64,000 nt of DNA from a virus (lineage: Duplodnaviria; Caudoviricetes): positions 13,626 through 77,625 of the IMG/VR virus record IMGVR_UViG_3300027533_000667; one strand, written 5' to 3'. Numbering within the stretch: position 1 is the first letter of the stretch; each line of letters starts with the position of its first letter. Under the pieces are notes generated by a model that was not told the origin of the DNA, searched no databases, and saw only the letters and a list, made by a program, of their open reading frames with translations. Shown piece after piece: positions 32,960 to 60,825 of the stretch. The position numbers and the translations under genes are program-made.

Positions 32960-34042
32960 TTACGCCACTGACACGTCCACAACGCCAGTGTTGCCATCGG
33001 CGTCCGCACGCAACTGCGGCAGGTAGCTGCACATTGCCTTTTGGCACTTTAAGAATCCGCCCTGCTCTTCCCATCGAACGACTTGCATCCGAAGTGCGAT
33101 AATTGCCCTAGCAACCCGCGGGTCCATCTGAACCCAAATCGACTTGAAGCCGGTCAGCGTATCGAGTGAGCGGATATCTGCCACACCGCCAACACGCATC
33201 AAACGATCCTTCAGCGTCGCCCCGCCGTACATATCACTGTAGTCATCTTCGAGATACAAATCCCAATCCGGTGCTGTGTAAACGATGAATGGCCCGTATC
33301 GCTTCTTGCTGCGCAACAGCTTCTTGATATCCAAAAATTCCTTGACCGAATCATTAGGCGTCCAACCAGCACCAGACGGATCGGTCATGGTGTAAGTTAG
33401 CCGAGACGGCCAATTCAGATAACCGTAGACGGCACCGGAACCATAAGCGTATGCTGTTCCAGTACCGAGAACTAACGCTTCGACCTGCTGAGCGATGTTG
33501 TAGCCAGCTTCAGATGCCTGTGACGTATCGAGAGGCAATCCAGCACGCTCGAATACACGCATGTCGCGATCATCGTTGTCAAAGTCAGCATGGATGATCG
33601 GAATGGGCATGTAGTCGAAGTCGATCTGTTGACGATCCCGCTCGCCTATGCGAATCGGATTCATGCTCACAATAGCCTTACCGAAGTGCGACGCTTTGAC
33701 CGTCCGCAACTCAGTGATGCTATAACCATCAGGAATGACGTATGGAGTTCGGGCTGCTAGATCGTCCCAAACCTGCATACGAATGTTCGATGCCTCAAGA
33801 ACAGCATCGTCCCATTTCTGCCAGTACCCGGCAGGCATCAACGTCGCAGCATTAGCAACGTCGATCCTAAATGGTTTTCTGACTGTTGTGCCGTCGGGCT
33901 TGTACCCGACTATTCTGGCAACATAAGGCTTTCCATCCTCACCCAAATATGGGCGAAGAGCGCCAGTGTCCCAGTTTACAGACGCCAACCGATCGGCAAC
34001 GCTACCGAAGGCTTGGCCGCCCAGAATGTAGTTCGGCTCCAT
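32960..34042 (-). CDS. major capsid protein (HK97 fold, encapsulin/Linocin-M18-like)
   Basis: PIPIIHADF..DDRDM...GLPLDTSQASEA...AQQVE.LVLG, YGYLNWPSR; follows the protease and decoration genes. Confidence 0.85.
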   Translation of the reverse strand: MEPNYILGGQAFGSVADRLASVNWDTGALRPYLGEDGKPYVARIVGYKPDGTTVRKPFRIDVANAATLMPAGYWQKWDDAVLEASNIRMQVWDDLAARTPYVIPDGYSITELRTVKASHFGKAIVSMNPIRIGERDRQQIDFDYMPIPIIHADFDNDDRDMRVFERAGLPLDTSQASEAGYNIAQQVEALVLGTGTAYAYGSGAVYGYLNWPSRLTYTMTDPSGAGWTPNDSVKEFLDIKKLLRSKKRYGPFIVYTAPDWDLYLEDDYSDMYGGATLKDRLMRVGGVADIRSLDTLTGFKSIWVQMDPRVARAIIALRMQVVRWEEQGGFLKCQKAMCSYLPQLRADADGNTGVVDVSVA

Positions 34043-37460: not shown

Positions 37461-38105
37461 CTACGCTCCAATTTCTTTCAGTTCGCCCATAGAACCTGAC
37501 AAAATCGTGACCGCATTGCCATTCGTCTCGCTTGCAAATCGCAAAATGAATGTGCCGCCAGCCGCGCCTGTCGATATGTTACCGTCGATCCAGAACGTCA
37601 TCGCCGTCGCGCCACCGCTCGCCAACCCAGCTATCGCCGTGTTGTACGCGCCAGTCGCTCCATTGCGTGTGGTTGTCGCCGACTCAGCGATGCAGCCGAC
37701 CACGCGGACTAAACTCGGAGACGCCGGTCCATTCACAGCCAAACTGATTCCTGTTGTCGCTCCGACAGCCGTATATGCGCCGACGAAAGCAAAGGAATAA
37801 TGCGTGTTCGGTTTCAGTTGAAATTCGAGCCCAGCCACATCGCTAAGTGCGTTGCTCGTCGTTTGCCGATTCGCCGACAGCCTCACCATCGCGTGCCGCA
37901 ACACCGGATTGCCCGTTCGAGCAGCCAACCAAATATCATGCGCTGCCTGCGACCAGTCGAAGGACGAGACGGCCGAGTTCGCCGCCGTTTGCTGCGGAGC
38001 GGTCGCGCCGTTGAAAGAAATCGTGATGTCGCCCTGCACGCCCGACACACCGTGAATCGGGCAGACGGCGGCGACGGTCTCGTGTAGACGATTAAGCATC
38101 GACAA
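37461..38105 (-). CDS. fibre-associated structural protein
   Basis: LHETVAAVCPIHGVS...ATAPQQTAANSAVSSFDW N-terminus, then a beta-sandwich. Confidence 0.6.
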   Translation of the reverse strand: MSMLNRLHETVAAVCPIHGVSGVQGDITISFNGATAPQQTAANSAVSSFDWSQAAHDIWLAARTGNPVLRHAMVRLSANRQTTSNALSDVAGLEFQLKPNTHYSFAFVGAYTAVGATTGISLAVNGPASPSLVRVVGCIAESATTTRNGATGAYNTAIAGLASGGATAMTFWIDGNISTGAAGGTFILRFASETNGNAVTILSGSMGELKEIGA

Positions 38106-39024
38106 TCCCCTGCATTCCAGACGCCGGCGCGCCGTAGAGCGTGTGGCTCGATGTCGTCCCAGCCTTTTCCAACCATGCGTAGTAGTGGTATCCCAGCGCC
38201 GGAACGAACACTTCGCGGATGGTGCTGACTATATACGCGCCGTTCGCAGCCATGTAAATCGCCGGCGCAAGGTCCGCGCTTGGCACAGTGATCGAATCGG
38301 CACCGATCGACAGGTGAGGCCCTGTGCTCGCCGTGGTGTCCGCTCCCTGAATCAACGTCAAGTCCACTGCCGGCCCGGCCAGACCTATCACCACTTCCGC
38401 TTGGTTCGTGACCGTCGCCCGTGCCTGTCGCCAAGTGACAGTAGCGTAAGTCCATGACACGGTTGCGTCACTGACGCGGAGCTTCCGCAGAACCCGATTG
38501 TTCGCATTCCACACGAACCGCCGACGCGCTGAATCCTCCGTCGTCGTCGTTGCGGTCGTTCGGATCGTGCCGAGATACCGCCGCGTCGTCGCGCCGCTCT
38601 TCACGTAAACCCCGTCCTGAGTCGTCAGCGCATCGGCCCGCGTCGTGTCGTTCGTCCACGCCGCTGAAAGTTCCAAGGTCAACGTGCCGGCGTTGTCGTA
38701 CAGGAAGACATCGTAGTTTTTGTCGGCCGTGATCGTGCCGAGGGCGAGCGTCTTTTCCGTGAACGTGTAGAGCTTCCAACTTGTGCCGTCGTACAGGCCG
38801 ACCAGGTTGTGAGTGAACGGCGTGTAATAGACGTTCGTCTTTGCGGCCTGGTCGGCCGTGCTGATAGGGACGCCGGACTCCAGCGTCAACCGCCCGCCGG
38901 CAAAGCCTTGTGGGGTGTAGGCGCTGACGACGAAGTCACGCTGATCCTGTGCGCTGATATCGCCGGCTGCATTGTCGGCGAACAGCGTCAGCAGTTCGGC
39001 TCGGGTTCGTGGTACGTCAGCCAC
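38092..39024 (-). CDS. fibre/adhesin-like structural protein
   Basis: GGRLTLESGVP...YYTPF...KNYDVF...RRYLGTIRT pattern recurrent in phage fibre proteins. Confidence 0.6.
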   Translation of the reverse strand: MADVPRTRAELLTLFADNAAGDISAQDQRDFVVSAYTPQGFAGGRLTLESGVPISTADQAAKTNVYYTPFTHNLVGLYDGTSWKLYTFTEKTLALGTITADKNYDVFLYDNAGTLTLELSAAWTNDTTRADALTTQDGVYVKSGATTRRYLGTIRTTATTTTEDSARRRFVWNANNRVLRKLRVSDATVSWTYATVTWRQARATVTNQAEVVIGLAGPAVDLTLIQGADTTASTGPHLSIGADSITVPSADLAPAIYMAANGAYIVSTIREVFVPALGYHYYAWLEKAGTTSSHTLYGAPASGMQGIVDA

Positions 39025-41874
39025 TTAGCCTCCAACTTTCTTGTAAACCGCCTCGCCTTCCCAACTCAATTTCGGAATCACGACATATTCGACCGGCGTC
39101 GGCGGGACTGGCAGAACCATCGTGCGAATCGCCACGCTCGCCGTCGCCGTCCCACCCTGGCCAGTCGCCGTGGCTGTCGCCGTGAAATCGCCAGCCGACG
39201 CATACGGATGCGTGATCGTCAGTGCGTTGCCGGTCGTACCGTCACCGAAGTCCCAAACAACACCCGTCGCATTCGTGACGACTGCCGCGAACGACACGGA
39301 CAGCGGCGCAACTCCCGACGTCGGGCTTGCCGCGATCGTGATCGTCGGCGCAGGTGTCGGCGTCGGCGGTTCTGGCGCGTCTTGCGGCACGTTCGGCAAC
39401 GGTAATGCGGGCTGAATCGGCGTGCTGGCCGGTGGTTGAGTAACCCACCAATCGTAAGCCTGTCGATTCGGGTACGGCGCACCGTCCGGAATGCGGTTGA
39501 CCCACACACCAAGTTGGAAGCCGTCAACCATAGTCTGCGGGCAGTTCAGGCCGAGCGTGTAGACGTATGGTCCGGTTTGAATCCACTCGCCGGTTGCGTC
39601 CTGAATAATAAGTGGGCCATCGGCATTGACCGTCTGTTGGAATGCGCCGTGACTTCGAGATGATTGAGTCACCCAAATATCAGGTAGTACCGTCGGCGGT
39701 CCGCTGGACACATAAGCTTGAATGCCGTCCGTTCCTTGCACTGCATCCGCCGGCAAGAGCTTCATTCCGATCCGCGTGTGATACTTTTCCCAGAACGTCG
39801 CGTTCGTGTGACCGACCGCGTGAGGCGGAATGTTCAGCACGCTCGAGTAAGGGAAATCGTCGGCCAGTTCGGGATAATGCAGGAACTTGTCGCCGACCTT
39901 AACCACATCATCCCAATAGCACATTTGGCCATTCTGCATGAACGGCATCAGCATCGGGTATCGCGGATCACCCGTGTAGAGGTTCGCCCCGAAGTGGTTC
40001 ATCCTCAGTCGAACTTTGAACATCGGACAGTCGAACGTCGTCGCCGCATCGAACGTGATTCGTCTCGGAACGCGATGGAACACCTGCGGTATCGAAATCC
40101 CAACGTCGGCGCGAATGGCGCAGTTGACGTAGGTGTTCGTTTGGCTCGTCCATCCGGGAATTGCCGACGGCCAACGCTGCCGACCGGCGACGGAGAGCAT
40201 TGATAGGTTTGTCCACGAGATGCCGCCCGTGAACCCGCTGTGACCAACAGCCGCGAATGGTCCGGTTGCGCTCGGAATCGGATCGGGGATGACGATGTTC
40301 TCGAAGTCCATCCACGTCATGTAGCCGAAAAACACCGATTGCAGCGATGCTTCGAACCAACAGTTTTTTACCGTGCTGTTTCGCACCGGCGCTTGCGTCG
40401 GCGTGATGTTCAGACCGACTTGCCAGAAATCGACAGCCTCGCCGCACGCGAACACGTTCAGCCCGTCGATCACTTGTGGCGCGAGCGCCGGCGCGCAACC
40501 GCTGGTGAGAATAGACGGCGTGTTGCACGTGCCCTTGATGTTGACGCCGGGGAACACAACCTCGGTAGTGAAGTCTGGCGGTAGCTTGAACGACGACGAG
40601 CCAGCGAATCCCATCAAGAACACACCATGCGATTTTGGGAACCCAGCTACGTCGCAGTCGTAAATCTCTTCGCCGCCGCAGTGCGTCCAAATGCCGTGGC
40701 CATTTTTGGCATGATCTTCAGTTGGCGATGCTGGCTCCTGTAAATTTACGATAGGTACAAGACAGGTTGTTCGCAGCATAGAACATTCACGCAACTCACC
40801 GATCTCCGTGCCGATCTCACTGACTAAATGCCCTCCAAAGATTTTGTACGCCGCGCATCCGAACCGGTTCACATATGAACCGTGGTTGACAAGTCCCCAG
40901 CCAGGCGATCCTTCAAAGTAGCACTCCTCAACCTTGTGCGGTTCATCGGTCCACGTCCCGCCGTTCAGATGGAAATGGAGCATGTACCGGCCGCGAGCGT
41001 TCTCTAGGCCGTTGCCGAAGCCGTCCGGGTCCGTGACTGGCAACGCCTTGTCGGTCCGCCCGAGGTTGACAAACCCCGCATGGCAGATGTCCGTCATCCC
41101 GCCGTGACCGTGCGAACCGTGGCCACTCATCACCATGATGTGCCCGAAGCGTTTCGGGTCCGTCGATTCGCTAGTGAAATGAACGGTCCGCTTGCTGCGA
41201 TTGATGACGAACATCTCGCGGTAGAGGCCGGTCTTGGCGTCAGCAAGGCGAACGTGGTCAAACAGAAGCGGAGCATTGAGAACCATCGACATGCCATCGG
41301 CGGCGACCGAGACGATGCTCAGTTCCTCATCTTCATTCGCCAAGCAACTTGTACCGGCCATGGCAATCGAATCGCCAGCGATCCAACCGGCAACCGGCTT
41401 TTGAAATCGGATCAGCCTTTCCCCGGCCATGTTGCCGAGCGTCCGCACTCTCGCCGTCCGCTTCTCGCCGCACGCTTCGAACATTCCCATCGCGATCAAG
41501 CCGCGACCCATTGCCCACGGATCGGCAGTGAAGTCCATCGGCCCGAAGTCTGCGAACACCACGTCGCACTGGCCGGTGACTTCGTTGTGATGATCGCCAA
41601 ATTTGAGCACGCTCCCCATGTCGCTGACGATCGTCTCGCAGTGGAGTCGCGTGTTCGCATCGACTTGCGTGATGAGCGAGCCGCCGACGCGCAACCACTT
41701 GAGTTTCGGCGTCTGGATGTCGAGAGTGAGTGTTATCCCTGGCGGGACGTAGACGCGATCGCCGTCGTTTAGGACCAAAGCAGACATCGGGCCGCTTTGC
41801 GCGACGACAACCGTCGCCGCGTTCAGCGGGCAGATTGCCAAAACTTTATCCATGTCCGTCACGATGTTCTCCAA
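39025..41874 (-). CDS. G8-domain, parallel beta-helix, PKD-domain protein (putative receptor-binding protein/depolymerase)
   Basis: G8 pattern (DRVYVPPG.TLTLD...WLRVGGSL...RGLIAMG), GRYMLHFH beta-helix, C-terminal PKD (ASPTSGVAPLSVSF...WDFGDG...HPYASAGDFT). Confidence 0.8.
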   Translation of the reverse strand: MENIVTDMDKVLAICPLNAATVVVAQSGPMSALVLNDGDRVYVPPGITLTLDIQTPKLKWLRVGGSLITQVDANTRLHCETIVSDMGSVLKFGDHHNEVTGQCDVVFADFGPMDFTADPWAMGRGLIAMGMFEACGEKRTARVRTLGNMAGERLIRFQKPVAGWIAGDSIAMAGTSCLANEDEELSIVSVAADGMSMVLNAPLLFDHVRLADAKTGLYREMFVINRSKRTVHFTSESTDPKRFGHIMVMSGHGSHGHGGMTDICHAGFVNLGRTDKALPVTDPDGFGNGLENARGRYMLHFHLNGGTWTDEPHKVEECYFEGSPGWGLVNHGSYVNRFGCAAYKIFGGHLVSEIGTEIGELRECSMLRTTCLVPIVNLQEPASPTEDHAKNGHGIWTHCGGEEIYDCDVAGFPKSHGVFLMGFAGSSSFKLPPDFTTEVVFPGVNIKGTCNTPSILTSGCAPALAPQVIDGLNVFACGEAVDFWQVGLNITPTQAPVRNSTVKNCWFEASLQSVFFGYMTWMDFENIVIPDPIPSATGPFAAVGHSGFTGGISWTNLSMLSVAGRQRWPSAIPGWTSQTNTYVNCAIRADVGISIPQVFHRVPRRITFDAATTFDCPMFKVRLRMNHFGANLYTGDPRYPMLMPFMQNGQMCYWDDVVKVGDKFLHYPELADDFPYSSVLNIPPHAVGHTNATFWEKYHTRIGMKLLPADAVQGTDGIQAYVSSGPPTVLPDIWVTQSSRSHGAFQQTVNADGPLIIQDATGEWIQTGPYVYTLGLNCPQTMVDGFQLGVWVNRIPDGAPYPNRQAYDWWVTQPPASTPIQPALPLPNVPQDAPEPPTPTPAPTITIAASPTSGVAPLSVSFAAVVTNATGVVWDFGDGTTGNALTITHPYASAGDFTATATATGQGGTATASVAIRTMVLPVPPTPVEYVVIPKLSWEGEAVYKKVGG

Positions 41875-43162: not shown

Positions 43163-44710
43163 TTATGTAGTGTTTCGATTAAGCTGAGTCTGTCCATTTC
43201 GATTTTGATTCGTTCTATCGGCACTACTGGTTGTACCAGAACTAGGCAATCCGCTACCTTCTTCCCGCCAAATCATCTCAGTGAGTGCTTTATATCCTGG
43301 CTTCTTAATTTGTACTATGATCTTCGTTGCCAAATCATGCTTCCACTTCAAAACCTCAGTGAGATAAAAGTAGTATGGCATGACTTTCTCAGCACCGCTC
43401 GTGACGTACTGCAGCAGCGATTGCGTCAACTTGAGAGCGATTTCCGCCTGCTCTGTTTCCTTTAGAGCATTCAAATCCTTCCAAGAAATCTTGTACTGTT
43501 TTGGTTTCGACAGAACACCGAACATTATCAGACGATCAAGCAATTCACGGCAAAGTTCTGGTTCGGCGACCTGCCATTGTCGTTTGGCGATTCTACCATT
43601 CCATCGCTTGCCTTCTTCGTCACCTGTAGTTTGGCCAGATTCACTACCGAGCAGAATGCGAACTGGACACCCCAGCGCCATGGCGATCATCAATAACTGC
43701 TGATATACATGCGCTGTTGGATCGGAAATGGTTCCAGTAAGTGCTTTGATCGTGACGCCTTCAACTGCTATGAATCTTTGTAGATGATTCAGAAACAGCT
43801 GGAACTCTTCGCTTAACTCTTCCTTGTTGATACTTTCAGCATCGAGGAACTCCGGCAACGACTCAACCGAATAACCTGGATATCCGCCCTTGTAGAACAT
43901 CTCGCCGGAACCGGCAAGAATCTTTCTCAGATCACAACATCGATTGATTGTTGTTTGCAGTCTCGGCGTGCCGTATATTTCACTCTCTACTTTGTCAGGG
44001 GCAAAATGAAGAACTCTCTGCCAATGAACCTTCTCTGGCACAGGCCCTTTTCGCCTGGCTGTCATAGGCGAAGAAGCAGACTGCTCACCTTCCACGAAAG
44101 TAGAATTTGCTGTATCAGTAAAAGTGAAATGATACATTTTGGGTCTGCCAAAACGATCACTATTAGCATCCTCCTCTATCTCAAAAACCTGAGCATTCTG
44201 CTCTGAGAATACCCGGATGAACTTCAAACTGAGTTTTGCCGGTCTGCCTTTGATTTTGTTGCCATCCTCATCAAATCCTTCAATTGGCTGATCCAATTCT
44301 GCTTCGTCATCGAAACCAAGCAGAAGACAACCATATCGACCGATACCAGCAACCTTATCCAACCTATGAAGATATGCCCACAAGTTTATAGTAATCAGCA
44401 ATTCATCTAGCGATCTTTCAAACTCTGTGGATTCTTCACCTTCCTGTTCGTAAGCATCTGGATAGACCTTCCATGTCTCATCCGGCAACAGATTAACGAT
44501 CTGAGTGGCAAACCCTTCTTCGTCAAACCACTGCTTGTAAACTTCGTAAGGAATTGGACGTGATGGATATCCGCACTCCGCATTCATGTCGCGGGTTGGC
44601 GGATCGAGGAAGTTCCTACCTCCAGCCTGCTCTCGGCTTAGGAAATTACGGATCACTCCCGTAATTGCCCTGCCCATCATCTTGTTGAAGATCAGTTTCT
44701 GATCTGACAC
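43163..44710 (-). CDS. portal protein (DUF1073-type)
   Basis: GIGRYGCLLLG, VHWQRVLH, GTPRLQ, GCPVRILLGSESG, SWKDLNAL.E.EQAEI motifs. Confidence 0.88.
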   Translation of the reverse strand: MSDQKLIFNKMMGRAITGVIRNFLSREQAGGRNFLDPPTRDMNAECGYPSRPIPYEVYKQWFDEEGFATQIVNLLPDETWKVYPDAYEQEGEESTEFERSLDELLITINLWAYLHRLDKVAGIGRYGCLLLGFDDEAELDQPIEGFDEDGNKIKGRPAKLSLKFIRVFSEQNAQVFEIEEDANSDRFGRPKMYHFTFTDTANSTFVEGEQSASSPMTARRKGPVPEKVHWQRVLHFAPDKVESEIYGTPRLQTTINRCCDLRKILAGSGEMFYKGGYPGYSVESLPEFLDAESINKEELSEEFQLFLNHLQRFIAVEGVTIKALTGTISDPTAHVYQQLLMIAMALGCPVRILLGSESGQTTGDEEGKRWNGRIAKRQWQVAEPELCRELLDRLIMFGVLSKPKQYKISWKDLNALKETEQAEIALKLTQSLLQYVTSGAEKVMPYYFYLTEVLKWKHDLATKIIVQIKKPGYKALTEMIWREEGSGLPSSGTTSSADRTNQNRNGQTQLNRNTT

Positions 44711-44715
44711 AGCAA

Positions 44716-45042
44716 CTATCCTCTTAATTTCTTAACTTCAGCACACACACCGGCAAGTCGATCCTTTTGTTTTGGATCGCGTAATTGTGACATTAACTCT
44801 ATTCGCAACGAATCCCGCTTCTTCGCCGGGATTCGTTTTCGCCGACTGATCCGATCAATCAACCTCTCCACCCGCTTAGGTCGCTTGATTGCCAACTTTT
44901 GAATTGCCTCTTCCGGCGGTGTCTGCTTCGGAAGACATATAGATGCTGCCTGCAAAACCCCGATCAGAAATTGAAGCAACAAAGCAGCATCTATAGCTAA
45001 CTTAGCAGACATCTCTCCGGCGGTCTGGCGGGTTTCGGTCAT
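44716..45042 (-). CDS. hypothetical protein
   Basis: ATG 45042 overlaps the upstream TGA. Confidence 0.55.
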   Translation of the reverse strand: MTETRQTAGEMSAKLAIDAALLLQFLIGVLQAASICLPKQTPPEEAIQKLAIKRPKRVERLIDRISRRKRIPAKKRDSLRIELMSQLRDPKQKDRLAGVCAEVKKLRG

Positions 45043-45317
45043 CCTGTCACGATTGAAAAAATTGGAACCTCTCGAATCGACTTCACCGCCTCGCGGCACT
45101 TCGGGCAGAAGCGGTCGCCCGGTTTACCTGACCCGCGAAAGTAGAATTCTCTAACGTGCAACGGCCCGAGGCATCGCGTCATATCCGCGGCAGCCCCCTT
45201 TTGTCCTGCCATCGGCTTCGCTCCCCGTCTCCGGTCGGGCAAGCCCCGTAGGTGTCTGGCGGTCGGCATCACTCTCGCTTTCGCCGGACACGCCGGCGGG
45301 TTCGTTGCCTTTATCAC
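45039..45317 (-). CDS. small basic zinc-binding protein
   Basis: C...H...RFCPKC; ATGA overlaps. Confidence 0.5.
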   Translation of the reverse strand: MIKATNPPACPAKARVMPTARHLRGLPDRRRGAKPMAGQKGAAADMTRCLGPLHVREFYFRGSGKPGDRFCPKCREAVKSIREVPIFSIVTG

Positions 45318-45976
45318 CCTCCGGACAGGCGGGCCGGCCGCGCTGCCGGACGTGCGGCTTGGCGTCGCACGGGCGATGCCATGATCGGCAGGGACAACGC
45401 ACCTTTCGCGTCGCGGATTTTGACTTGGGCTATTGTTTTGGTCGTTGTGACGCTCGCCCCGTCCACGAATTTCTGAGCCATCCCCTTATCGATCGCGGCG
45501 GCCGTCTCGCCCGTGCAATCGCACATCGACACGAAACGGCCGCCGCCGCTCTTGTCCATGAACAGCAGCCGCGAACCTATCGCGTCCGTCTCGTTCCCGA
45601 AACCTTTCTCCAGGTAGATCAGTACGGCCTTGTCGACGAATTCATCGGCGAGCAAACGACCGGCGCGACTGGTCAGGCTGTCCTTGCCCGCGAAGATCAT
45701 GTACGGCTTGTTGACTTTCTTCGCGGCCGCTTTCCCGTCCGCGATCGTGCGGAACAAATTGGTCCCCGTGGTCAGACTCTTGTGGTGCGCGTAGAGGAAA
45801 TCCGGATCGGCCCACGCGCGGGCCTTGGCTTCCTCGCGAGTCATTTCCGGTTCGTCGTCGCGCGTCCCTTTCTTTTCGTAGTCCTGCCCGGCCGAGACCC
45901 CGGAGAGCGCCAGGACGATCAACAGACTAGCGATCACGACCATCGCCGACAGGAATGTATCGATCAACTTGCTCAT
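45314..45976 (-). CDS. exported/membrane protein
   Basis: N-terminal hydrophobic signal (VVIASLLIVLALSGVSAG); CDC motif; GC-rich. Confidence 0.6.
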   Translation of the reverse strand: MSKLIDTFLSAMVVIASLLIVLALSGVSAGQDYEKKGTRDDEPEMTREEAKARAWADPDFLYAHHKSLTTGTNLFRTIADGKAAAKKVNKPYMIFAGKDSLTSRAGRLLADEFVDKAVLIYLEKGFGNETDAIGSRLLFMDKSGGGRFVSMCDCTGETAAAIDKGMAQKFVDGASVTTTKTIAQVKIRDAKGALSLPIMASPVRRQAARPAARPARLSGG

Positions 45977-46004
45977 GATGTTTCTCCGAATGTGAAAAGC
46001 GGAC

Positions 46005-46361
46005 TCAGCGGCCGAACAGGAAATCCCTGACCGGCGTCGCCCGGCGCCGTGGCACGACGTAAACGGGAACGTAGGCCGGCTTGGCGCGAGCGGCCTCGAG
46101 AACGACGTAGCGAACGGCCGGCGCTTGTGCCGGAACGTAGCGAATCCGTCGCTCCTCGATCGCTGCCGGCGGCGGGATATCTTCCTCGATCGTCAGGATG
46201 CGCACGCCAGGCGTTCCGGGGATCTCAGTGACGATCCTCCGGGCCGGTGTGCCGGGATACTCTTGGATGTTCGTGATTCGCTGGCCGGTGGCTGGCGGGT
46301 TCGCGCAGACCAACGACCGGCAAACCAGAACGGCCACAACGGCGAACAAAACAACTCGCAT
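46005..46361 (-). CDS. exported Pro-rich protein of planctomycete style
   Basis: MRVVLFAVVAVLVCRSLVCA signal; ends PRRRATPVRDFLFGR. Confidence 0.6.
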   Translation of the reverse strand: MRVVLFAVVAVLVCRSLVCANPPATGQRITNIQEYPGTPARRIVTEIPGTPGVRILTIEEDIPPPAAIEERRIRYVPAQAPAVRYVVLEAARAKPAYVPVYVVPRRRATPVRDFLFGR

Positions 46362-46369
46362 GGTTAGCC

Positions 46370-46561
46370 TCATTTCTTCGGGCGAACGGCCGGGCGATCG
46401 CTCCACTCTTGGATGCCGATCCGCTTGCCGTCGATCATCTCGTACTCAGTGACCTTCACGACTGCCTTGGCCGGCGGAGTCGAAACGCCACGGATCGGGC
46501 CCGCGTAAATGGCTGGTAGCGGGCCGAACAGCATGATCAGGATCGCGGCAAACTGGATCAT
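46370..46561 (-). CDS. small membrane/exported protein
   Basis: MIQFAAILIMLFGPLPAIYA. Confidence 0.45.
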   Translation of the reverse strand: MIQFAAILIMLFGPLPAIYAGPIRGVSTPPAKAVVKVTEYEMIDGKRIGIQEWSDRPAVRPKK

Positions 46562-46601
46562 GTTCGAGCCTTTCGAAAAAAAGGGCGATGGGCGAACGGA
46601 A

Positions 46602-47060
46602 TCAAGACCGACGAATCACCTTCGGGTTCCTGTTGACTCGCGGCGATACGCCGAACGTCGACGGCCCAGGCTCGTCGGGAATCACGCGCACGAAATTGAT
46701 CGACAAAATCTGCGGCTGCGTCGGCCCGGTCGTGTCCGGCGGGGTCAGATCAAAAGACACGGCCGCGCTTGGCGTGCTCGCGTTGTTCGCTTGATCGTAG
46801 TCGACGAGAAACGCGGAGCCGGTCTGCCCGGGGTTTGGGTCCGTGTTGAACAGAACCGCTTGATCCGTCGGGCTGAGCCCAAGCACGACTTCCTGATTCG
46901 GAGTCAAAACGTGCAGTTCTCGTCGCACCGTCGCGTCTTCCGGAACCACCGCCGACATGTCCGCCCGAAATTCCAGTTTCATGACGATCCTTGGTTGAGA
47001 CACGCTCCCAATATTAGGCCGGGCCGGGGAGCAATTGCGCCGGCATTCTTCGTTGTGCAT
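46602..47060 (-). CDS. hypothetical beta-rich protein
   Basis: Follows the subtilase stop; the alternative start is ATG 46982. Confidence 0.5.
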   Translation of the reverse strand: MHNEECRRNCSPARPNIGSVSQPRIVMKLEFRADMSAVVPEDATVRRELHVLTPNQEVVLGLSPTDQAVLFNTDPNPGQTGSAFLVDYDQANNASTPSAAVSFDLTPPDTTGPTQPQILSINFVRVIPDEPGPSTFGVSPRVNRNPKVIRRS

Positions 47061-47062
47061 GT

Positions 47063-48793
47063 TTAGCCCGGGTCAGCGTCTTCGGGATGCTCGATCTCCC
47101 ACACTTCGTCAAAATGATTCGTGAACATGTTGATTACGAAATTGATATACCCTTGAAGCGTTCTGGAGCCAATGAAATAGCTCCACATCTGCATTGTAGC
47201 CAATGCCGCCGCTACGCCCCTGCGGAATTTTTCCTTTTCTGCTTGCGTTTTTGTCGTTGGAGCCTCGATGACTTTCGCCAGTTCGTCGAATCCCTCAGGC
47301 GTCTTGATTCCCTGATCGCAATAGAACTGTCGGCACGATTTAATCGTTTCATCCGGCGGCGACACTTCCAAAGCATTCATATTGATCGTTGTGATCGTTG
47401 CAGTCAACGATGCCATGACGACAGGATCACTCTCGAAGATCACCCACAATTTGCTCCACATCGCCGTTTCTGTCAACGCATCAAGAAACACAGATGTTGC
47501 TTTGATTCGAGGGTATGCCCCGCCGAAAATCTTCAAGAACCCATTCAACTGTTGTAGCAACAGTCTACTTTGCTCTTTGTCAAGAGCAGCCGCCGCAGTA
47601 ACATTTTTCGATTTCCCCATGTCACTCTCTCCTGTTATAGAATTAAGAACCACTTGCTCAACCGTCTTCCTGGTCGGGTCGATCCTAAGCCTAACGTCAA
47701 ACATCCCCGGTGTTCCGGGATCGGGCGGAAAGGGGGGTTGTGGAGGTTGTGAAGCGAGTTCCGAAACCATCTTCGCGGTGTCGATCAGTCCAGCACCTGT
47801 TCTTTCGTCTGGCCCGGTTGGAACCAAATCAAAAGCAGTGCGACGAAGAATGGCGAGCAACTCAGACTGATTTGGAATACGGAGTCCTAGCTGCTTAAGC
47901 CTACCGCGATAAAGTGCCAAACAACCAGCAATTGCCGGTGTTGCCATTGACGTGCCGCTATAAGTGGCATATCTGTTGCCGGGAATGGTAGACATGATGC
48001 TTACGCCAGGTGCGGCAATATCGTTCTCCCGATGAATGGTGGAGAACGAGGCTCGTTTGTTGCTCTTGTCTGTTGCTGCTACGGCGATAGACTCAGGCCA
48101 ATGCCCAGGGTAACTCTCTGCTGGACCACCATCATTACCAGCTGCAATCACAACCCAACATCCTTTACTTATCGCATACTGCAGCGCCGGACGAGTGACG
48201 GTATCTTTCGACGGTCCACCTAGCGACAATGATATGATGTCAGCTCCCACATCAGCCGCATGACGTATGCCATTCGCAATCCACCTAGAAGCACCAGACC
48301 CTTCATCAGACAGAACTTTAACAGCTACAAGTTTGGCACTAGGCGCAATTCCTATAATGCCATTTCCGTCCGATCTTGCAGCCACAATCCCAGCGCAGTG
48401 CGTGCCGTGTGATTGCTTATCCATGAAACCTGACGACGAGCCAGTGAAATCTTTGCACTTATCAAGTATCACTTGATCGGCTAGATCGACATGTTTGTAA
48501 TCAATGCCAGTATCACAAATAGCGACAATACATCCATTTCCAGTAACGCCGCCATCGTATAGCTGAGATATGCCCAAATTGGTATGCGACCAATCCCTTG
48601 ATTCTGCCAAAGCCATCGACAACAACTCACGCCTTAAAGTCATTTCCGGCTCACGCTGATCTGGCGGCAACGTGACACGCGCTTCTTCCGGGTCTACATA
48701 GCCAGGTGGGAAATCGTTTCGTTGGATAGCTTCTTGTGCTGCAGTCATCATGTCTGGTACGCGATTCATGATTGCCTGAATGATATCCAGCAT
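47063..48793 (-). CDS. S8 subtilisin-like serine protease with C-terminal helical domain
   Basis: Catalytic triad motifs CDTG, HGTHCAG, GTSMATP; oxyanion AAGND; SLSLG. Confidence 0.92.
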   Translation of the reverse strand: MLDIIQAIMNRVPDMMTAAQEAIQRNDFPPGYVDPEEARVTLPPDQREPEMTLRRELLSMALAESRDWSHTNLGISQLYDGGVTGNGCIVAICDTGIDYKHVDLADQVILDKCKDFTGSSSGFMDKQSHGTHCAGIVAARSDGNGIIGIAPSAKLVAVKVLSDEGSGASRWIANGIRHAADVGADIISLSLGGPSKDTVTRPALQYAISKGCWVVIAAGNDGGPAESYPGHWPESIAVAATDKSNKRASFSTIHRENDIAAPGVSIMSTIPGNRYATYSGTSMATPAIAGCLALYRGRLKQLGLRIPNQSELLAILRRTAFDLVPTGPDERTGAGLIDTAKMVSELASQPPQPPFPPDPGTPGMFDVRLRIDPTRKTVEQVVLNSITGESDMGKSKNVTAAAALDKEQSRLLLQQLNGFLKIFGGAYPRIKATSVFLDALTETAMWSKLWVIFESDPVVMASLTATITTINMNALEVSPPDETIKSCRQFYCDQGIKTPEGFDELAKVIEAPTTKTQAEKEKFRRGVAAALATMQMWSYFIGSRTLQGYINFVINMFTNHFDEVWEIEHPEDADPG

Positions 48794-48809
48794 CGTTTGT
48801 CCTCAAATT

Positions 48810-48983
48810 TTACAGTGCGAATCTATCAAACTCTTCGATTCGCTCGTTCTCGATTTGCTGCCCAGAACCCTGACACGATGCACCGCCATCTTCGGTTGTA
48901 TGTTCGATGAACTTCTTTGGCTCGCCTTCCACTTTGATCCACCTATTGCAAATTGGGCACTGAGCTGCTGGATATGACTCCAT
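48810..48983 (-). CDS. small zinc-binding protein
   Basis: CPIC...H...C; GAGG SD. Confidence 0.5.
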   Translation of the reverse strand: MESYPAAQCPICNRWIKVEGEPKKFIEHTTEDGGASCQGSGQQIENERIEEFDRFAL

Positions 48984-49274
48984 TGGAACCTCAAAACACA
49001 AATTTGCCAATTAGAATGCCGCCGACTAACATCAGAATCAGACAAACAATGCCTATAGTCAAATACAATCTCTTAATATCACGAACCTCTTTTTCACTTG
49101 GAGACATCATCAGCGAATTCCCACTTTGATCAAGTAAATCCATCGATCAGGAAATACTTCTGTCGCTAGCGACACGGCAAAACACACCCATAACAATGCG
49201 CCGGTGATGAGCCAATCAAGCAAAGGCAGTCGGTAATCGGATTCGGCGTAGTCGTTGGCTTCCACGTCACAAAC

Positions 49275-49604
49275 TCATTTATCTTCCTTACCCATCACAG
49301 CTGCTTTAACTTCCTTCCGTGTCGCCTTAACTTCGGAGCGAACTGCCTTGACCTCATTCGCAGAATCAGCTGCGGCCTCATGTGCCGAAGTGGCTGCCTT
49401 TGCCGCGTCGTCAACGCGCTTTTCGGTCGACTGGATGCGCTTGTCTGCCGATTCGACTTTGCTTTGCGTCCGAAGGCTCAGGTAGGCGTTGATCGCCTGG
49501 GCGCTGAACACCGTCAGGAAGCCGATTGTGGCCAGCCAGACGCGCGTATCGTGCCACGGCTTGACGGGATGAGCGGTCGGCGGCGTCGGTGATTCGTTAT
49601 CCAT
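49275..49604 (-). CDS. single-TM coiled-coil protein (holin/spanin-like)
   Basis: VWLATIGFLTVFSAQAINAYL followed by an Ala/Lys coiled coil. Confidence 0.55.
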   Translation of the reverse strand: MDNESPTPPTAHPVKPWHDTRVWLATIGFLTVFSAQAINAYLSLRTQSKVESADKRIQSTEKRVDDAAKAATSAHEAAADSANEVKAVRSEVKATRKEVKAAVMGKEDK

Positions 49605-49627
49605 ATAACTCCATTAGTCCGAGAACG

Positions 49628-49783
49628 TCATAGATACCTAACCAGCAGAATAATCAAAATCACGACGAGTAGTACGCCGACAATTCCAATCGGACCATTG
49701 CCCCACTCTCCTCGACGTGTGCCGACCCACCCACCGCCTATCAACAAAAGAACAAGCAGAACGATCAGAATGATCTCAAGCAT
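49628..49783 (-). CDS. two-TM small membrane protein (DUF3309-like)
   Basis: Read manually: MLEIILIVLLVLLLIGGGWVGTRRGEWGNGPIGIVGVLLVVILIILLVRYL. Confidence 0.7.
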   Translation of the reverse strand: MLEIILIVLLVLLLIGGGWVGTRRGEWGNGPIGIVGVLLVVILIILLVRYL

Positions 49784-49863
49784 ATTACTCACCCTCTCAT
49801 TAGACTCATCACCAGAGCAGCATCACCACGATGAAGATGACCAGTAAGACTAGGAACATAACA

Positions 49864-50343
49864 TTACCTCTTATTTTCCATCGATTCCTGCTTTTTCTTG
49901 TGCTCCTCGTAGACTTCTTGCGCGACTTTCGCCTCGGCGATGTTCGCGGCCGTCGGCTTGTCTTCCGCCGATGCCTTGCACTTCGCCGCGAACATCCGCT
50001 TCTGTTCGAGCATCGCACTGTTGACCAAGGAATGCGTGTCCTCGCTGACCTTCGCCATAGCATCGAGCTTGTTGGCCGTGGCCTCTGTTGACTCAGCGAG
50101 AGACGTCTTCACTTCATTGACCGCTTTTGCCGCCGTTGCTGCCTGAACGCGGACCGCCTCCACCTTTTCAGCGGCGATTCTCTCGCGCTCGATCTTGGCG
50201 TCCTCACGGTCGGACAACCGCTTGCGGTCGGCGTAACTGATCACAAGCGACACCACACTGGTAACGATCCCGCCGACGCCTACGCACGAGGCCCCGATGA
50301 TCACGGCCCAGCCCGTTGCGTCGATTTCGGCGATGATAGTCAT
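49864..50343 (-). CDS. single-TM coiled-coil protein (holin/spanin-like)
   Basis: WAVIIGASCVGVGGIVTSVVSLVI TM, then coiled coil. Confidence 0.6.
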   Translation of the reverse strand: MTIIAEIDATGWAVIIGASCVGVGGIVTSVVSLVISYADRKRLSDREDAKIERERIAAEKVEAVRVQAATAAKAVNEVKTSLAESTEATANKLDAMAKVSEDTHSLVNSAMLEQKRMFAAKCKASAEDKPTAANIAEAKVAQEVYEEHKKKQESMENKR

Positions 50344-50609
50344 TCGCGATGTTCCTTTTTCTTTTTGGCTTCCGCTGCGACATTCGCCCTTTGCGATTCC
50401 CGCACGACGACGTTCACCTGCTCAATCACGGCACGCTGAACGCCTTTCACTTCCCGAACGACATTCGCAGCGACGGCAGCGTTCTCTTTTTTGTCCCTAG
50501 CACGCATCACAAGAATCCACGCGCCGGCTACAGTATTAATGAGCAGCACCAATCCACCAACTACAGCCGTGATGATTTCGCCAACGCTCATAGATACTCC
50601 AAGCAGCAA
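50340..50609 (-). CDS. single-TM holin-like protein
   Basis: IITAVVGGLVLLINTVAGAWILV then a basic C-terminus. Confidence 0.55.
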   Translation of the reverse strand: MLLGVSMSVGEIITAVVGGLVLLINTVAGAWILVMRARDKKENAAVAANVVREVKGVQRAVIEQVNVVVRESQRANVAAEAKKKKEHRE

Positions 50610-50978
50610 TCAATACAACAGATGTGCTGATACTGAATACGTATGAGACGTTCCGTTGCCGTGCGTTACCGTCACTTTCCAAGCGGCAGGTAGAACGTCT
50701 TTAGCAATTAGACCAGCTGATGCTGTCAAATCTGGATGAATTCTCAAAAGCACCGTACCGACGGCCGTAATGGCAGCACTAGCGAGTATAGTCCACGTCT
50801 TGCCAGAAAGAGGGTCCACACCTAAAATAGTAAAGGTTGTAGATGGTGATGTTCCTGCCGCTGTCGTGTCGATGACTACCAACAACCCCCTAGCCATCTT
50901 TGTGTTCTTTTGCGTTGCCATTGCTGTGGGAGTGGCAGTGCGAGCGGCAGATGTATAGCATTTGATATTGGTGGACAT
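50610..50978 (-). CDS. virion structural protein
   Basis: SAARTAT...RGLLVVID.TA...GVDPLSGK...LASAAITAVGT pattern. Confidence 0.6.
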   Translation of the reverse strand: MSTNIKCYTSAARTATPTAMATQKNTKMARGLLVVIDTTAAGTSPSTTFTILGVDPLSGKTWTILASAAITAVGTVLLRIHPDLTASAGLIAKDVLPAAWKVTVTHGNGTSHTYSVSAHLLY

Positions 50979-52305: not shown

Positions 52306-53214
52306 ATGGGCATCAGAGTTCTAATCAAGAAAAAGCGAGGATCGGAAGGCAGAGTATTAGGTTCAGCAAATCTAAAGTGGGAGAACAGATTCTACGTGGA
52401 CGCTTATCTGCTGGGCTCTCAAGGAGCCTCTCTTAACAAACTTGCCAAAGCAATTAAAGTGGACCCGCATACTGTGAGCAGATGGTTCATCAAAAGGCCA
52501 TCGTTCAGAGAAGCCTACGAACGTGGCAAAGAATGGCGTGTGAAAAGCATGAATCCGGAAAGCGAGGATTTCATCGAATTCGTTTATGGCAGACTGCCGC
52601 CAAAGCTTCGTCGATGGTGGAAGAAGATTCAGCAGTGGGAATTGACAGACACGGACGGCACCAACTTCAAAGCACGTAACCTAATCATGAAGATGACCAA
52701 GCAACAACGGCAGCACTTGTTCATTCATGCTTTGGTGAATTCATCTTTCAACGTCAGTAATGCTCTAAAGTCAGCACATCTCACCTACGACATGTATCGT
52801 CGCTGGGTCGAGCGAGACAAAGACTTCATAAAGATGCTAAACGAAATTCACGTTCACAAAAGGAATTTCGTTTCCGGTAGTCTATTCAGGCTAATCGGCA
52901 ACGGATCGGAAGCCGCCACGATCTTCGCCGCTCGTAACTTGTTGAAGGACGAAGGATTTGCTGATACTAAGAACGTCGAAGTTTCCGGCAGAATAGACCA
53001 CGCTCATTACAACATGGTGGAGATTCTGAAGCACGTCAGTCCAGAAGCAAAGAAAGAATTCTTGCGTGCAATACGAAAGCAAGAACAGGGCCAATTGGAA
53101 GACGTTGACAAGCCGAACATAACAATAACCAGAATCACTCAAAGAATGGGGATAGACGATGAAGAAGACACAACAGCTGAAGTTGTCGAAGCACAGGAAG
53201 TTGACGGCGACTGA
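52306..53214 (+). CDS. terS: terminase small subunit-like protein (two HTH-like regions)
   Basis: Upstream of and overlapping terL; LAKAIKVD..TVSRW and NVSNAL..AHL...YRRW HTH patterns; AATIFAAR...GF pattern. Confidence 0.7.
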   Translation: MGIRVLIKKKRGSEGRVLGSANLKWENRFYVDAYLLGSQGASLNKLAKAIKVDPHTVSRWFIKRPSFREAYERGKEWRVKSMNPESEDFIEFVYGRLPPKLRRWWKKIQQWELTDTDGTNFKARNLIMKMTKQQRQHLFIHALVNSSFNVSNALKSAHLTYDMYRRWVERDKDFIKMLNEIHVHKRNFVSGSLFRLIGNGSEAATIFAARNLLKDEGFADTKNVEVSGRIDHAHYNMVEILKHVSPEAKKEFLRAIRKQEQGQLEDVDKPNITITRITQRMGIDDEEDTTAEVVEAQEVDGD

Positions 53215-54688
53215 GGCACTTGTAATTGCCTCACTATGCCGAGATTCGTTCGAGTATTTCGTTAGGCGATTTTGGGAAGAGATCGTGCCGGAGAAACTCA
53301 TATGGAACTGGCATATGAGTTATCTGTGCGCCAGACTACAACGTCAAGCAGAACGAGTATTCGCTGAAATGCCGAAAGAACGGGATGAAGTCATCAACAT
53401 CCCACCAGGTACAAGCAAATCCCTAATCTGTTCCGTGATGTTCCCGATATGGGTATGGCTGAACATGCCATCAGCCAAGACTCTCGGAGCATCCTATTCT
53501 GAAAAACTGTCGCTAGACTTATCCCGCAAATCCCGTGATCTTGCCAACAGCGACAACTTCCGAATCTGCTTCCCTGAAATCGAGATCAAAGAAGATCAAG
53601 ATGCCAAATACTACTTCATGAATACTAACGGCGGTGCCAGATATGCTACCGGCAGCAAAGGCACCGTCACTGGAATGCACTTTCACTTCATAATTATCGA
53701 CGATCCGATTGATCCGAACGAAGCAATCTCAGAAGCTGAATTGGCAGCAAAGAACCACTGGATTCGCCAAACCCTTAGTTCCCGCAAAATCGACAAGCGA
53801 ATCACCGTCACATTCCTAATCATGCAGCGCCTGCACGAAAACGACCCGACTGCTGAATTCTTGAAAAAGGAAAAGGTGTTCCACACCAAAATCCCGATCA
53901 GCTTGGAGTTCGAGGTCAGGCCGAAAATCCTAGAGAAATTCTACAAGAACGGATTGCTCGACCCTAAACGAATGCCTGAGTCCGTCGTAGCCGAAGCAAG
54001 AAGAGACTTAGGTGAATATGGATTTGCCAGTCAGTATGGGCAAGACCCAGTGCCCGCCGGTGGCGGTCAATTCCAAACCGACAAGCTAAGAATCGGCACC
54101 CCACCATTCCGAATGAAAGCAATCGGCCGATATTGGGACTTAGCCGGCACACTTGCCAAACAAGCAAACAACATCAACAAAATGTATGCCAGAACATCCC
54201 AAGGCAATTCTGCCACAGGCGGACCCAAATTCACTGCCGGCGTAAAAATAGGAATTGCTGAAGATGGTCGTGTCTTCATCCTACATGTCGCCCGCTTCCG
54301 TTTAGATGTAGGCACCCGAAACAGAGAAATCCGCCGAATCTCCGAAGACGACGGTCACGACATCCCAATCGGAATTGAGCAGGAAGGAGGATCGGAAGGC
54401 TCCCATCAAGGGGTAGTCCAGCATCTAGTAGGGCACCGAATCAAAGTGTTCAAGCCTAAAGGTGATAAAGGTATTCGTGCCGAGCCACTTGCCGATCAAG
54501 TCAACAACGGCAACGTATGGTTGGCTCCTGGAGATTGGCACGACGCTTTTATCCACGAAATGAAATTCTTCCCTTATGGTGCTTTCCTCGATCAAATAGA
54601 TGCTGCCAGTGGATGCCTAGAAATGATCGCCACGAAAAAGCGTAGACGCCGTGTAATCCGTAAACGCAGTGAATACATCATTGCCTAA
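53159..54688 (+). CDS. terL: terminase large subunit
   Basis: INIPPGTSKS (Walker A), IIIDDPID (Walker B), IMQRLHENDP, YWDLAGT, DQIDAASG nuclease motifs. Confidence 0.92.
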   Translation: MKKTQQLKLSKHRKLTATEALVIASLCRDSFEYFVRRFWEEIVPEKLIWNWHMSYLCARLQRQAERVFAEMPKERDEVINIPPGTSKSLICSVMFPIWVWLNMPSAKTLGASYSEKLSLDLSRKSRDLANSDNFRICFPEIEIKEDQDAKYYFMNTNGGARYATGSKGTVTGMHFHFIIIDDPIDPNEAISEAELAAKNHWIRQTLSSRKIDKRITVTFLIMQRLHENDPTAEFLKKEKVFHTKIPISLEFEVRPKILEKFYKNGLLDPKRMPESVVAEARRDLGEYGFASQYGQDPVPAGGGQFQTDKLRIGTPPFRMKAIGRYWDLAGTLAKQANNINKMYARTSQGNSATGGPKFTAGVKIGIAEDGRVFILHVARFRLDVGTRNREIRRISEDDGHDIPIGIEQEGGSEGSHQGVVQHLVGHRIKVFKPKGDKGIRAEPLADQVNNGNVWLAPGDWHDAFIHEMKFFPYGAFLDQIDAASGCLEMIATKKRRRRVIRKRSEYIIA

Positions 54689-58590: not shown

Positions 58591-58770
58591 TGCTTCGATT
58601 AGTTGGTCTATTCTTGGGCGACGTATTGGATTGTACGTCGGTCCTTATCGAAATCGCTGATGTGTTCGGCGGTTTGATTTTGTTTGAGTGGACGGTAGGC
58701 ATTCACAATGCAATCGCGTCTGCTCAACTCGTCTTACTTTCAATTGGATCATGATATAAGGAACAATGAC

Positions 58771-59130
58771 ATGACACGGTGTACTTACAACGGTGTTGCT
58801 GGAATTGTCTATGATTGGGAAGATGCGGACGATGATGGTCCGCAATTCAAATTTGTCGGCGATGATGGTTCGTTTGATTTTGTCAATCTGTATCAGTTGG
58901 AATTTGGATCGCTTCCCAATGGGCGACCGATCATGTTTTTCACTCGAATCAAATATCGACTAGATCAGATGAACATGACTATCCGCCAGTTGGCGGATAG
59001 TGTCGGAAGTTATGAAGCGAACATATCTAGGATAATCGCCGGCGCTGGCGCTGAGCGGACGACACAAGATCGAATCGCTACAGTTTTGTTGGCAGATGTG
59101 TCGGATTTGTTCGTTCCGGTTAGGAGTTAA
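58771..59130 (+). CDS. XRE/Cro-family HTH protein with N-terminal extra domain
   Basis: IKYRLDQMNMTIRQLADSVGSYEANISRII...RIATVL..DVSDLF. Confidence 0.8.
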   Translation: MTRCTYNGVAGIVYDWEDADDDGPQFKFVGDDGSFDFVNLYQLEFGSLPNGRPIMFFTRIKYRLDQMNMTIRQLADSVGSYEANISRIIAGAGAERTTQDRIATVLLADVSDLFVPVRS

Positions 59131-60396: not shown

Positions 60397-60825
60397 ATGA
60401 AACGAATCGCAGCAGCAATTCTTATGCTGCCATTAGTAGGCGGTTTTGTGATTACATCCGGTTGTGCAAAGAAGAAAACCGAACCTACAATGACAGCAGC
60501 AGCATCGCCACAAGTGATGCCTAAGATCGGCGACATTTGCAAGCTTAGCGATTCTGGACGCCACCATGGCGAGTACATTTTCTACAAGAATCTGCATGCA
60601 CTCGCCGAAGCTTTCAAACACAACAACACCAAGGACGATTACGGAACACGAGAGATGATCCGTGATGGCAAAATCTTCAAAGTGGCAGTTGATCGAGTTC
60701 GATTGATCGGGCTTCATCAAATCTCCGATTTGGTAATGGCAGAGGTTCGGATTCTGGATGGTCCAGCAGAGGGCAAAATTGGCTGGACGATCTATGAAGA
60801 ACTAATTCTGCCAGGCAAGGAGTGA
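60397..60825 (+). CDS. putative lipoprotein
   Basis: MKRIAAAILMLPLVGGFVITSG-C: basic N-region, hydrophobic core, lipobox-like Cys. Confidence 0.65.
   Translation: MKRIAAAILMLPLVGGFVITSGCAKKKTEPTMTAAASPQVMPKIGDICKLSDSGRHHGEYIFYKNLHALAEAFKHNNTKDDYGTREMIRDGKIFKVAVDRVRLIGLHQISDLVMAEVRILDGPAEGKIGWTIYEELILPGKE

Follow-up and report, generated by a model that had tools for sequence, protein, structure and literature searches.

The window analysed here is a 64,000-nucleotide stretch of tailed-phage DNA, bases 13626–77625 of one 77,625-bp IMG/VR virus record (IMGVR_UViG_3300027533_000667) from an uncultured phage, and the element in question is a gene for a subtilase (peptidase family S8) together with the genes that precede it, which encode small proteins, most of them with a hydrophobic segment. 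This S8 module forms the start of the minus-strand block of structural genes, between the divergent terminase genes and the portal gene. An earlier note on the same DNA had described positions 47063–50609 as a possible protease-based lysis cassette, in which holin/spanin-like genes accompany a subtilase that serves as a protein-wall lysin and no endolysin can be recognised. We tentatively read the region as an envelope- or egress-linked protease module, and give this reading a probability of about 40%. The features of the region are listed below; hydrophobic segments were called on the Kyte-Doolittle (KD) scale with a window of 19 and a threshold of 1.6, GC3 is the G+C fraction at third codon positions, aa stands for amino acids and ORF for open reading frame.

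50340–50609, minus strand: 89-aa protein with a hydrophobic helix from residue 6 (KD 2.02), followed by a charged, coiled-coil-like tail
49864–50343, minus strand: 159-aa protein with an N-terminal hydrophobic helix and a long coiled-coil-like region; GC3 0.76
49628–49792, minus strand: 54-aa protein with two hydrophobic helices (KD 2.72 and 3.14), a member of DUF3309 (PF11752, E 3.3e-7, above the cut-off)
49275–49604, minus strand: 109-aa protein with a weak hydrophobic segment below KD 1.6 and a coiled-coil-like tail; GC3 0.65
49110–49265, minus strand: 51-aa ORF with one hydrophobic helix (KD 1.97)
48991–49143, minus strand: 50-aa ORF with a C-terminal hydrophobic helix (KD 2.74) and a weak DUF3784 match (E 0.0014, below the cut-off)
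48810–49010, minus strand: 66-aa ORF with a CPIC motif and one more Cys, 16 nt upstream of the S8 gene; GC3 0.48, core-like
47063–48793, minus strand: S8 gene, 576 aa
48569–48793, minus strand: S8 residues 1–75, N-terminal extension without a signal peptide, holding a latency-type motif region
47759–48568, minus strand: S8 residues 76–345, subtilase catalytic domain, modelled with a confidence score (pLDDT) mostly above 90
47621–47758, minus strand: S8 residues 346–391, proline-rich linker and short beta-hairpin tail, where most relatives end
47066–47620, minus strand: S8 residues 392–576, helical partner domain with the motif FDEVWEIEHP
45314–47060, minus strand: four-gene high-GC3 island (46602–47060, 46370–46561, 46005–46406 and 45314–45976; GC3 0.72–0.79)
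44716–45099, minus strand: 127-aa protein with one hydrophobic helix (KD 2.12) and a basic tail, just upstream of the portal gene; GC3 0.48
43163–44710, minus strand: portal (Pfam PF06381, E 3e-29; phrog_146, E 8e-58), at the downstream end of the module

Taken alone, the protease is a conventional S8 enzyme of the intracellular-subtilisin type. PF00082, the only Pfam domain listed for the protein, matches residues 85–335 with 181 bits against a cut-off of 21.8 (E 3.4e-53), and the core also matches phrog_3677 (E 1e-71) and aligns with subtilisin BPN' at E 2.7e-54. In this last alignment D94, H129 and S282, together with the oxyanion residue N220, fall on D32, H64, S221 and N155 in the numbering of BPN', and all four are invariant in an alignment of 25 S8 relatives. 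As in intracellular subtilisins, neither an N-terminal hydrophobic segment nor an I9-type prodomain is present, so that the earlier description of an intact S8 protease without a signal peptide holds in full. The N-terminal extension is modelled as a helix (residues 2–25) and two strands (39–41 and 51–54) with a pLDDT of 60–84, and contains ARVTLPP...RDWSH, a degenerate copy of the pattern P[IVL][YF]xLPP...RDW[GS]H of the clade described below, in which P[IVL][YF]xLPP sits about 55 residues before the catalytic Asp and has a putative role in latency. Two further strands (364–372 and 377–386) are modelled with low confidence in the linker. The GC3 of the S8 gene (0.48) is like that of the portal gene (0.45), and this core-like composition indicates that the protease gene is not part of the foreign islands of the genome.

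The crowding of membrane proteins around the protease gene is not a matter of chance: 9 of the 13 ORFs in 44716–50609 bear a hydrophobic segment, compared with 18 of the 88 in the window (hypergeometric P = 4e-5). Four small transmembrane (TM) proteins, at 50340, 49864, 49628 and 49275, had been said to precede the protease; all four ORFs are found there and three have a clear segment, but that of the 109-aa protein stays below the threshold. A holin-like architecture (small size, one to three helices and a charged C-terminus) fits several of the ORFs of the cluster, in which hole formation is only putative, and an N-terminal helix followed by a coiled coil, the layout of inner-membrane spanin subunits, is predicted from the sequence of three ORFs that have no family match. 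No Pfam, PHROG or NCBIfam family rises above noise for the 89-aa protein or the 66-aa ORF, and the 159-aa protein, given its GC3 of 0.76, looks foreign to the phage core. On the other side of the S8 gene, between it and the portal-proximal genes, three of the four genes of the island at 45314–47060 have signal-peptide-like N-termini, and none of the four matches a family in Pfam, PHROGs or NCBIfam.

An association with membrane proteins is also seen around other phage S8 genes. In a set of 80 viral loci, small TM ORFs within 1.2 kb and on the same strand were counted around S8 genes and, as a control, around other long ORFs. After deduplication at 70% S8 identity, they were found near 20 of 52 S8 genes and 40 of 365 controls, an odds ratio of 5.1 (P = 3e-6; undeduplicated counts, 36/80 and 93/548) whose size is approximate, because gene calling was crude (longest non-overlapping ORFs).

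The clade to which the window protease belongs was defined, among the best 120 homologues listed, by the shared motif RDW[GS]H, which 54 of them carry, most together with P[IVL][YF]xLPP upstream of the catalytic Asp. Its members come from metagenome assemblies and viral contigs; a motif-pattern scan of one genome from each of 185,579 prokaryote species gave no confirmed relative of the clade, and motif-based scans of IMG/VR found none. Six of the 54 (P0019, P0044, P0045, P0046, P0048 and P0050) have an extra N-terminal module of about 100 residues, made of one membrane helix and a coiled coil with the shared motif RHExAExxQF, and three more (P0062, P0066 and P0068) have classical signal peptides; a comparable range, from cytoplasmic to anchored, exists among endolysin families. 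A single further clade member was among the 25 confirmed hits of a metagenome scan with a generic S8 pattern, which returned at least 600 stretches. It lies on an 80.8-kb contig of 69% G+C (L082) and is 54% identical to the window protease over 307 aa; here the gene order is a two-helix protein that has a charged tail, a protein of 104 aa and a TM-anchored S8, which adjoins head genes on the opposite strand. Among GenBank phages the best S8 matches are in Bacillus phages, with 32–46% identity over the core only. One clade member (P0047) carries an intein with a homing-endonuclease domain; phage inteins usually sit in essential genes.

Exported proteins recur beside these proteases as well. Exported proteins with the haem-binding motif CxxCH accompany S8 in five places (L008/L009, L039/L040, L059, L066 and L082), those of L059, L066 and L082 having signal peptides. 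Two complete phage genomes with a related S8 (G001 and G002) have, respectively, a CCP_MauG di-haem peroxidase encoded directly after S8 (E 6e-49) and a protein with a 'Planctomycete cytochrome C' domain (PSCyt1, E 8e-6). In the window, S8 is instead followed by the island of exported proteins, and it has more membrane ORFs and a fused partner domain.

This C-terminal partner domain provides a further element of the module. Searched with phmmer against 1.84 billion representatives, it is found in nine other proteins, seven of which are stand-alone proteins of 134–198 aa that end in the same FDEVWAIEHP-type C-terminus. The stand-alone homologues begin exactly at the point that corresponds to Met392 of the window protein, and inside the S8 gene an AGGAG (47629–47633) lies 8 nt before the in-frame ATG of this residue (47618–47620); the C-terminal domain might thus also be made on its own. 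One stand-alone partner (P0153) and one S8 of the clade (P0015) are both listed with a longest contig of 72,522 bases. The existence of stand-alone partners and this shared contig entry lead us to regard the window gene, on sequence grounds, as a fusion whose two halves are encoded elsewhere by separate and probably neighbouring genes. No match to the domain was obtained in PHROGs, by fold or feature in the ESM Atlas, or in IMG/VR, and its family shows no homology to the genes adjoining S8 in G001, G002 and L082.

A wall hydrolase of a known kind was not recognised in this phage. The earlier note had seen no amidase, muramidase or M15/M23 peptidase in the window, and the same is true of the whole record, where no such enzyme and no transglycosylase, holin or spanin was identified by Pfam (107 ORFs), PHROGs (87) or NCBIfam (82). 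The S8 protein has no peptidoglycan-cleaving domain and is in this respect not an endolysin. Both G001 (68,279 bp) and G002 (83,203 bp), which CheckV estimates to be 100% complete, are likewise devoid of Pfam wall hydrolases (76 and 98 ORFs, respectively), and a six-frame search of the record and these two genomes for eight common endolysin families gave no match in any of the three. These phages have essentially only S8 in common with one another and with the window phage, the window and G001 copies being 41% identical. G001 represents a very divergent phage lineage, and G002 encodes, in L190 (2964–10100), a 2378-aa polyvalent protein that combines a Mu-type portal with inorganic pyrophosphatase and LPD1 domains.

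The intact S8 that adjoins membrane proteins, together with the lack of a recognisable wall-cutting enzyme, suggests that the protease may help the phage to leave its host. The module encodes several membrane proteins of very small size, bitopic or with two helices, of which three have long coiled-coil tails, and a latent-looking subtilase made in the cytoplasm. The N-terminal extension would keep S8 inactive until late infection, when the small proteins would permeabilise the membrane and allow the protease to act at or beyond the inner membrane, a location that relatives would reach through an anchor of their own. There, S8 would cleave host envelope proteins and so contribute to cell disruption and virion release. 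We infer the timing, latency, localisation, substrates and lysis role of S8 in this scheme, in which the protease could either carry out lysis alone or assist a muralytic enzyme that has escaped recognition, as LysB and the spanins do. An egress or envelope-attack role is, in our opinion, a reasonable lead.

A number of observations weigh against such a role. Searches of Pfam, PHROGs and NCBIfam at E up to 0.1 place none of the small proteins of the module in a holin or spanin family, and no small ORF with a lipobox, as expected of a lipoprotein spanin partner, was seen on reading 48800–50650, so that 'holin/spanin-like' describes architecture only. The TM/coiled-coil proteins of the window show no homology to the N-terminal modules that S8 relatives carry as fusions (hhalign probability at most 3.8%, the value for the 159-aa protein; 0.1% for the 109-aa protein), and no homologue of the exported haem-motif proteins is present in the window (tblastn, E up to 1). 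An N-terminal hydrophobic segment is missing from as many as 45 of the 54 clade members, which look cytoplasmic. Moreover, positive charges follow the helix in the TM-fused relatives, from which the positive-inside rule gives a weak hint that most of these would keep the protease domain in the cytoplasm. The genomic surroundings elsewhere are also unlike a lysis cassette: in G001 and G002, S8 lies near replication and accessory genes, outside any late operon and far from the structural genes, and around S8 in 13 other viral loci the neighbours are mixed, with no 'lysis' PHROG among 147 ORFs. The ends of the record are both open, with no terminal repeat, and an estimated 4% of the genome is missing. 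In G001 (L185–L188), terminase, portal and capsid protein all go unrecognised by Pfam at E up to 1e-3; as portal and terminase escape Pfam in this phage, an endolysin of divergent sequence could go unnoticed in each of the three genomes, and the absence of a recognisable endolysin is therefore weak evidence. Finally, subtilases are not known to cut peptidoglycan. Planctomycetes, the presumed host group, are described as possessing this polymer (PMC4432640, PMC4432595).

The strongest form of the proposal, in which small membrane proteins gate or tether a latent subtilase that replaces the endolysin as the principal lysis effector in planctomycete phages, seems to us quite unlikely. S8 would in that case digest load-bearing envelope proteins or, as a 'proteolytic amurin', inactivate or activate host wall-synthesis or autolytic enzymes. 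The claim of the earlier note that the subtilase is a protein-wall lysin is accordingly upheld only in part: the protease is intact, its cluster is rich in membrane proteins, some relatives are anchored, no muralytic enzyme is recognised, a separate prohead protease exists (see below) and a planctomycete host is plausible, but the lysin role itself remains a proposal, and the missing holin and spanin families, the peptidoglycan of planctomycetes and the lack of kinship between the small proteins and the S8-fused modules speak against it.

It is somewhat unlikely, in our estimate, that the phage lyses its host by a cryptic peptidoglycan hydrolase, or by one encoded in the missing 4%, and that S8 and its neighbours are an accessory envelope module, for which surface remodelling, destruction of a protein receptor, superinfection exclusion or lysogenic conversion can be proposed. 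The provirus class of the record and the integrases carried by G001 and G002 would fit this explanation, although no integrase is found among the 107 ORFs of the record itself, and the high-GC3 genes for exported proteins that come right after S8 would fit it too, although the composition of S8 is core-like. Relatives pair S8 with exported haem-c proteins that have no obvious lytic role, and the divergence of the proteomes is great enough for an endolysin to go unnoticed; against this stand three unrelated complete or near-complete genomes in which neither the eight endolysin families nor any Pfam hydrolase was recognised. We consider it unlikely that S8 instead has an intracellular site of action, on the cytoplasmic side of the membrane, where it would either cleave host proteins (takeover or counter-defence) or block a membrane-bound step of wall synthesis; such a block would bring about lysis as the single-gene lysis proteins of small phages do, with no muralytic enzyme involved. 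The missing signal peptide, the intracellular subtilisins among the closest solved relatives, the 45 of 54 clade members that lack an N-terminal hydrophobic segment, the charges that suggest a cytoplasmic protease domain in TM-fused relatives and the position of other phage S8 genes among replication genes, as seen in the 13-locus PHROG survey, all agree with an intracellular target. Such a target is harder to reconcile with L082 and the signal-peptide forms, which point to export, and with the place of the gene in the structural-gene strand between terminase and portal, and it leaves the association with exported proteins in relatives unexplained.

A role in virion maturation had to be weighed against the following gene, which the earlier note took to be a DUF2213 capsid-maturation protease.

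34623–35975, minus strand: prohead protease-scaffold, 450 aa, divergent DUF2213

The Pfam DUF2213 model itself finds no match in the window, but 19 of 29 homologues of this protein carry PF09979, and H70, S134 and H166 are invariant in 30 sequences of the family. Its AlphaFold model (pLDDT 79) resembles the T4 gp21 prohead protease in Foldseek (probability 1.0, TM 0.57) and in VIA (Z 11.9, root mean square deviation 3.4 over 140 aa), herpesvirus proteases following with Z 7–8.6, and its C-terminal half is helical and scaffold-like. The gene occupies the usual position of such a protease, between portal and capsid, and the predicted structure and the conserved residues identify its product as a prohead protease of the assemblin/gp21 fold, so that the earlier assignment is sustained through homologues and fold. 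Since a dedicated protease-scaffold exists, capsid maturation can do without S8, and it is unlikely that S8 takes part in virion maturation; that S8 processes virion proteins at all (capsid, portal, tape measure or fibres) appears very improbable to us. S8 does lie upstream of the portal gene if the high-GC island is left out of account, its helical C-terminal domain could dock on an assembly, and in L082 it adjoins head genes, on the opposite strand. However, membrane-anchored and signal-peptide-bearing relatives are hard to square with work inside proheads, and in G001 and G002 the gene is far from the structural genes. Last, the idea that S8 is an IetS-like anti-phage defence protease carried by a prophage has hardly any credit with us: it relies on weak IetS matches (PADLOC, E 1.8e-7; NCBIfam, E 0.0024) that cover only the catalytic core and are far weaker than the generic S8 match (E 3e-53), and none of the 15 neighbouring genes is a partner from a defence system, IetA included. 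The defence assignment was rejected, as PADLOC gives generic similarity only.

The remaining features of the genome are those of an uncultured 78-kb siphovirus-type phage, with the gene content of a tailed phage according to Pfam and PHROG scans of the record, which is classed as a provirus with a CheckV completeness of 96%.

Plus strand: replication module, with a split family-A polymerase, clamp loader, gp32-like, UvsX-like, FEN, SbcCD, primase, and DnaB-like and SNF2 helicases
52306–54688, plus strand: TerS and TerL (small and large terminase subunits)
52035 down to ~23200, minus strand: long structural block, with portal, decoration protein, major capsid protein, tape measure and tail genes
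32960–34042, minus strand: major capsid protein
25881–28538, minus strand: tape measure

The family-A polymerase is split into a part with UDG and 3'-5' exonuclease (4460–5863) and a polymerase part (7075–8550), separated by about 1.2 kb with a 108-aa ORF. Despite the provirus class, the Pfam scan of 107 ORFs from the whole record revealed neither an integrase nor a recombinase, and a Cro/C1-type helix-turn-helix protein at 58708–59130 is the only gene of that sort seen. A lipoprotein-like N-terminus (…ITSGC) occurs in one ORF only, of 142 aa (60397–60825), in the early region and far from the module. The phage core has a G+C content of 49% and a GC3 of about 0.45–0.5, whereas foreign islands are G+C-rich; two of them, 37461–41874 and 45314–47060, have a GC3 of 0.65–0.79 and look acquired from a G+C-rich source, perhaps the host. 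The former includes a 949-aa, depolymerase-like protein with G8 and PKD domains. A scan of 43–53 kb for promoters and terminators gave counts not above those of shuffled sequences. No close known phage was found in GenBank by searches with S8, TerL or capsid, and no relative in IMG/VR by single-protein scans with S8 or portal.

Regarding the host, the protein encoded at 2320–3171 has a TIGR02996 domain (NCBIfam, E 3e-16), which NCBIfam names after Gemmata obscuriglobus, and its relatives occur at 78 genome loci, 44 of Planctomycetota (mostly Gemmataceae), 21 of Myxococcota type and 13 others. These relatives, together with the planctomycete cytochrome domain of G002, indicate that the host is probably a planctomycete, as the earlier note had assumed; this is plausible and not proven. 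The TIGR02996 domain is also encoded in L082 and L040, and proteins of this kind may serve as a host marker for planctomycete phages.

Tailed phages are, to our knowledge, thought to need a peptidoglycan hydrolase for exit, and we know of hardly any study of planctomycete phages. A full-text literature search returned no report of a subtilase in phage lysis or of lysis by a planctomycete phage. In this regard, a 2025 overview of lytic proteins encoded by viruses (PMC12596118) uses neither 'subtilisin' nor 'peptidase S8' in its main text, a 2025 review of Planctomycetes uses the word 'phage' once (PMC12673574), and an article on Bacillus anthracis phages (PMC13118943) mentions no more than a subtilase-like domain, itself inactive, within a tail protein. 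The novelty lies in the fused partner domain, in the arrangement of the module and in the fact that it recurs in phages for which no muralytic enzyme can be recognised. If S8 were the principal lysin, this would constitute a third lysis route for a large tailed phage of a peptidoglycan-containing bacterium, and three unrelated complete or near-complete genomes in which a related S8 is present and a wall hydrolase cannot be recognised pose the question of how a host with an unusual envelope is lysed. Even if the protease is an accessory, its link with membrane proteins is a first handle on the widespread phrog_3677, which is annotated only as 'protease'.

Several known systems resemble the module in part. 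Like the holin-endolysin-spanin cassettes, it has tiny membrane proteins adjoining a signal-less hydrolase, and the membrane-anchored relatives of S8 recall the signal-anchor-release endolysins; unlike in these cassettes, the hydrolase is a subtilase, holin and spanin families and a lipoprotein partner are missing, and there are six membrane ORFs (one of them weak), where fewer are usual. The intracellular subtilisins of Bacillus (2x8j, 2wv7, 7y6m), which match the S8 core at E 1e-46 to 6e-54, share with it the absence of a signal peptide or large prodomain, and the proline/aromatic motif in the short N-terminal extension of the clade resembles their LIPY latency motif. However, the extension of the window protein does not align with theirs and its motif (ARVTLPP) is degenerate, and the proline linker, the fused helical domain and the viral context set it apart. 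Accessory lysins of the LysB type embody the same idea of an enzyme that attacks a non-peptidoglycan layer of the envelope as a late aid to lysis; mycobacteriophage LysB is an esterase that always accompanies the muralytic LysA, whereas no muralytic partner can be recognised beside the window S8. Holin-dependent export (type 10 secretion) is chromosomal and passes its cargo via a peptidoglycan hydrolase, in contrast to a phage module with no recognised wall hydrolase, but the two have in common that holin-like proteins adjoin a leaderless, envelope-active enzyme.

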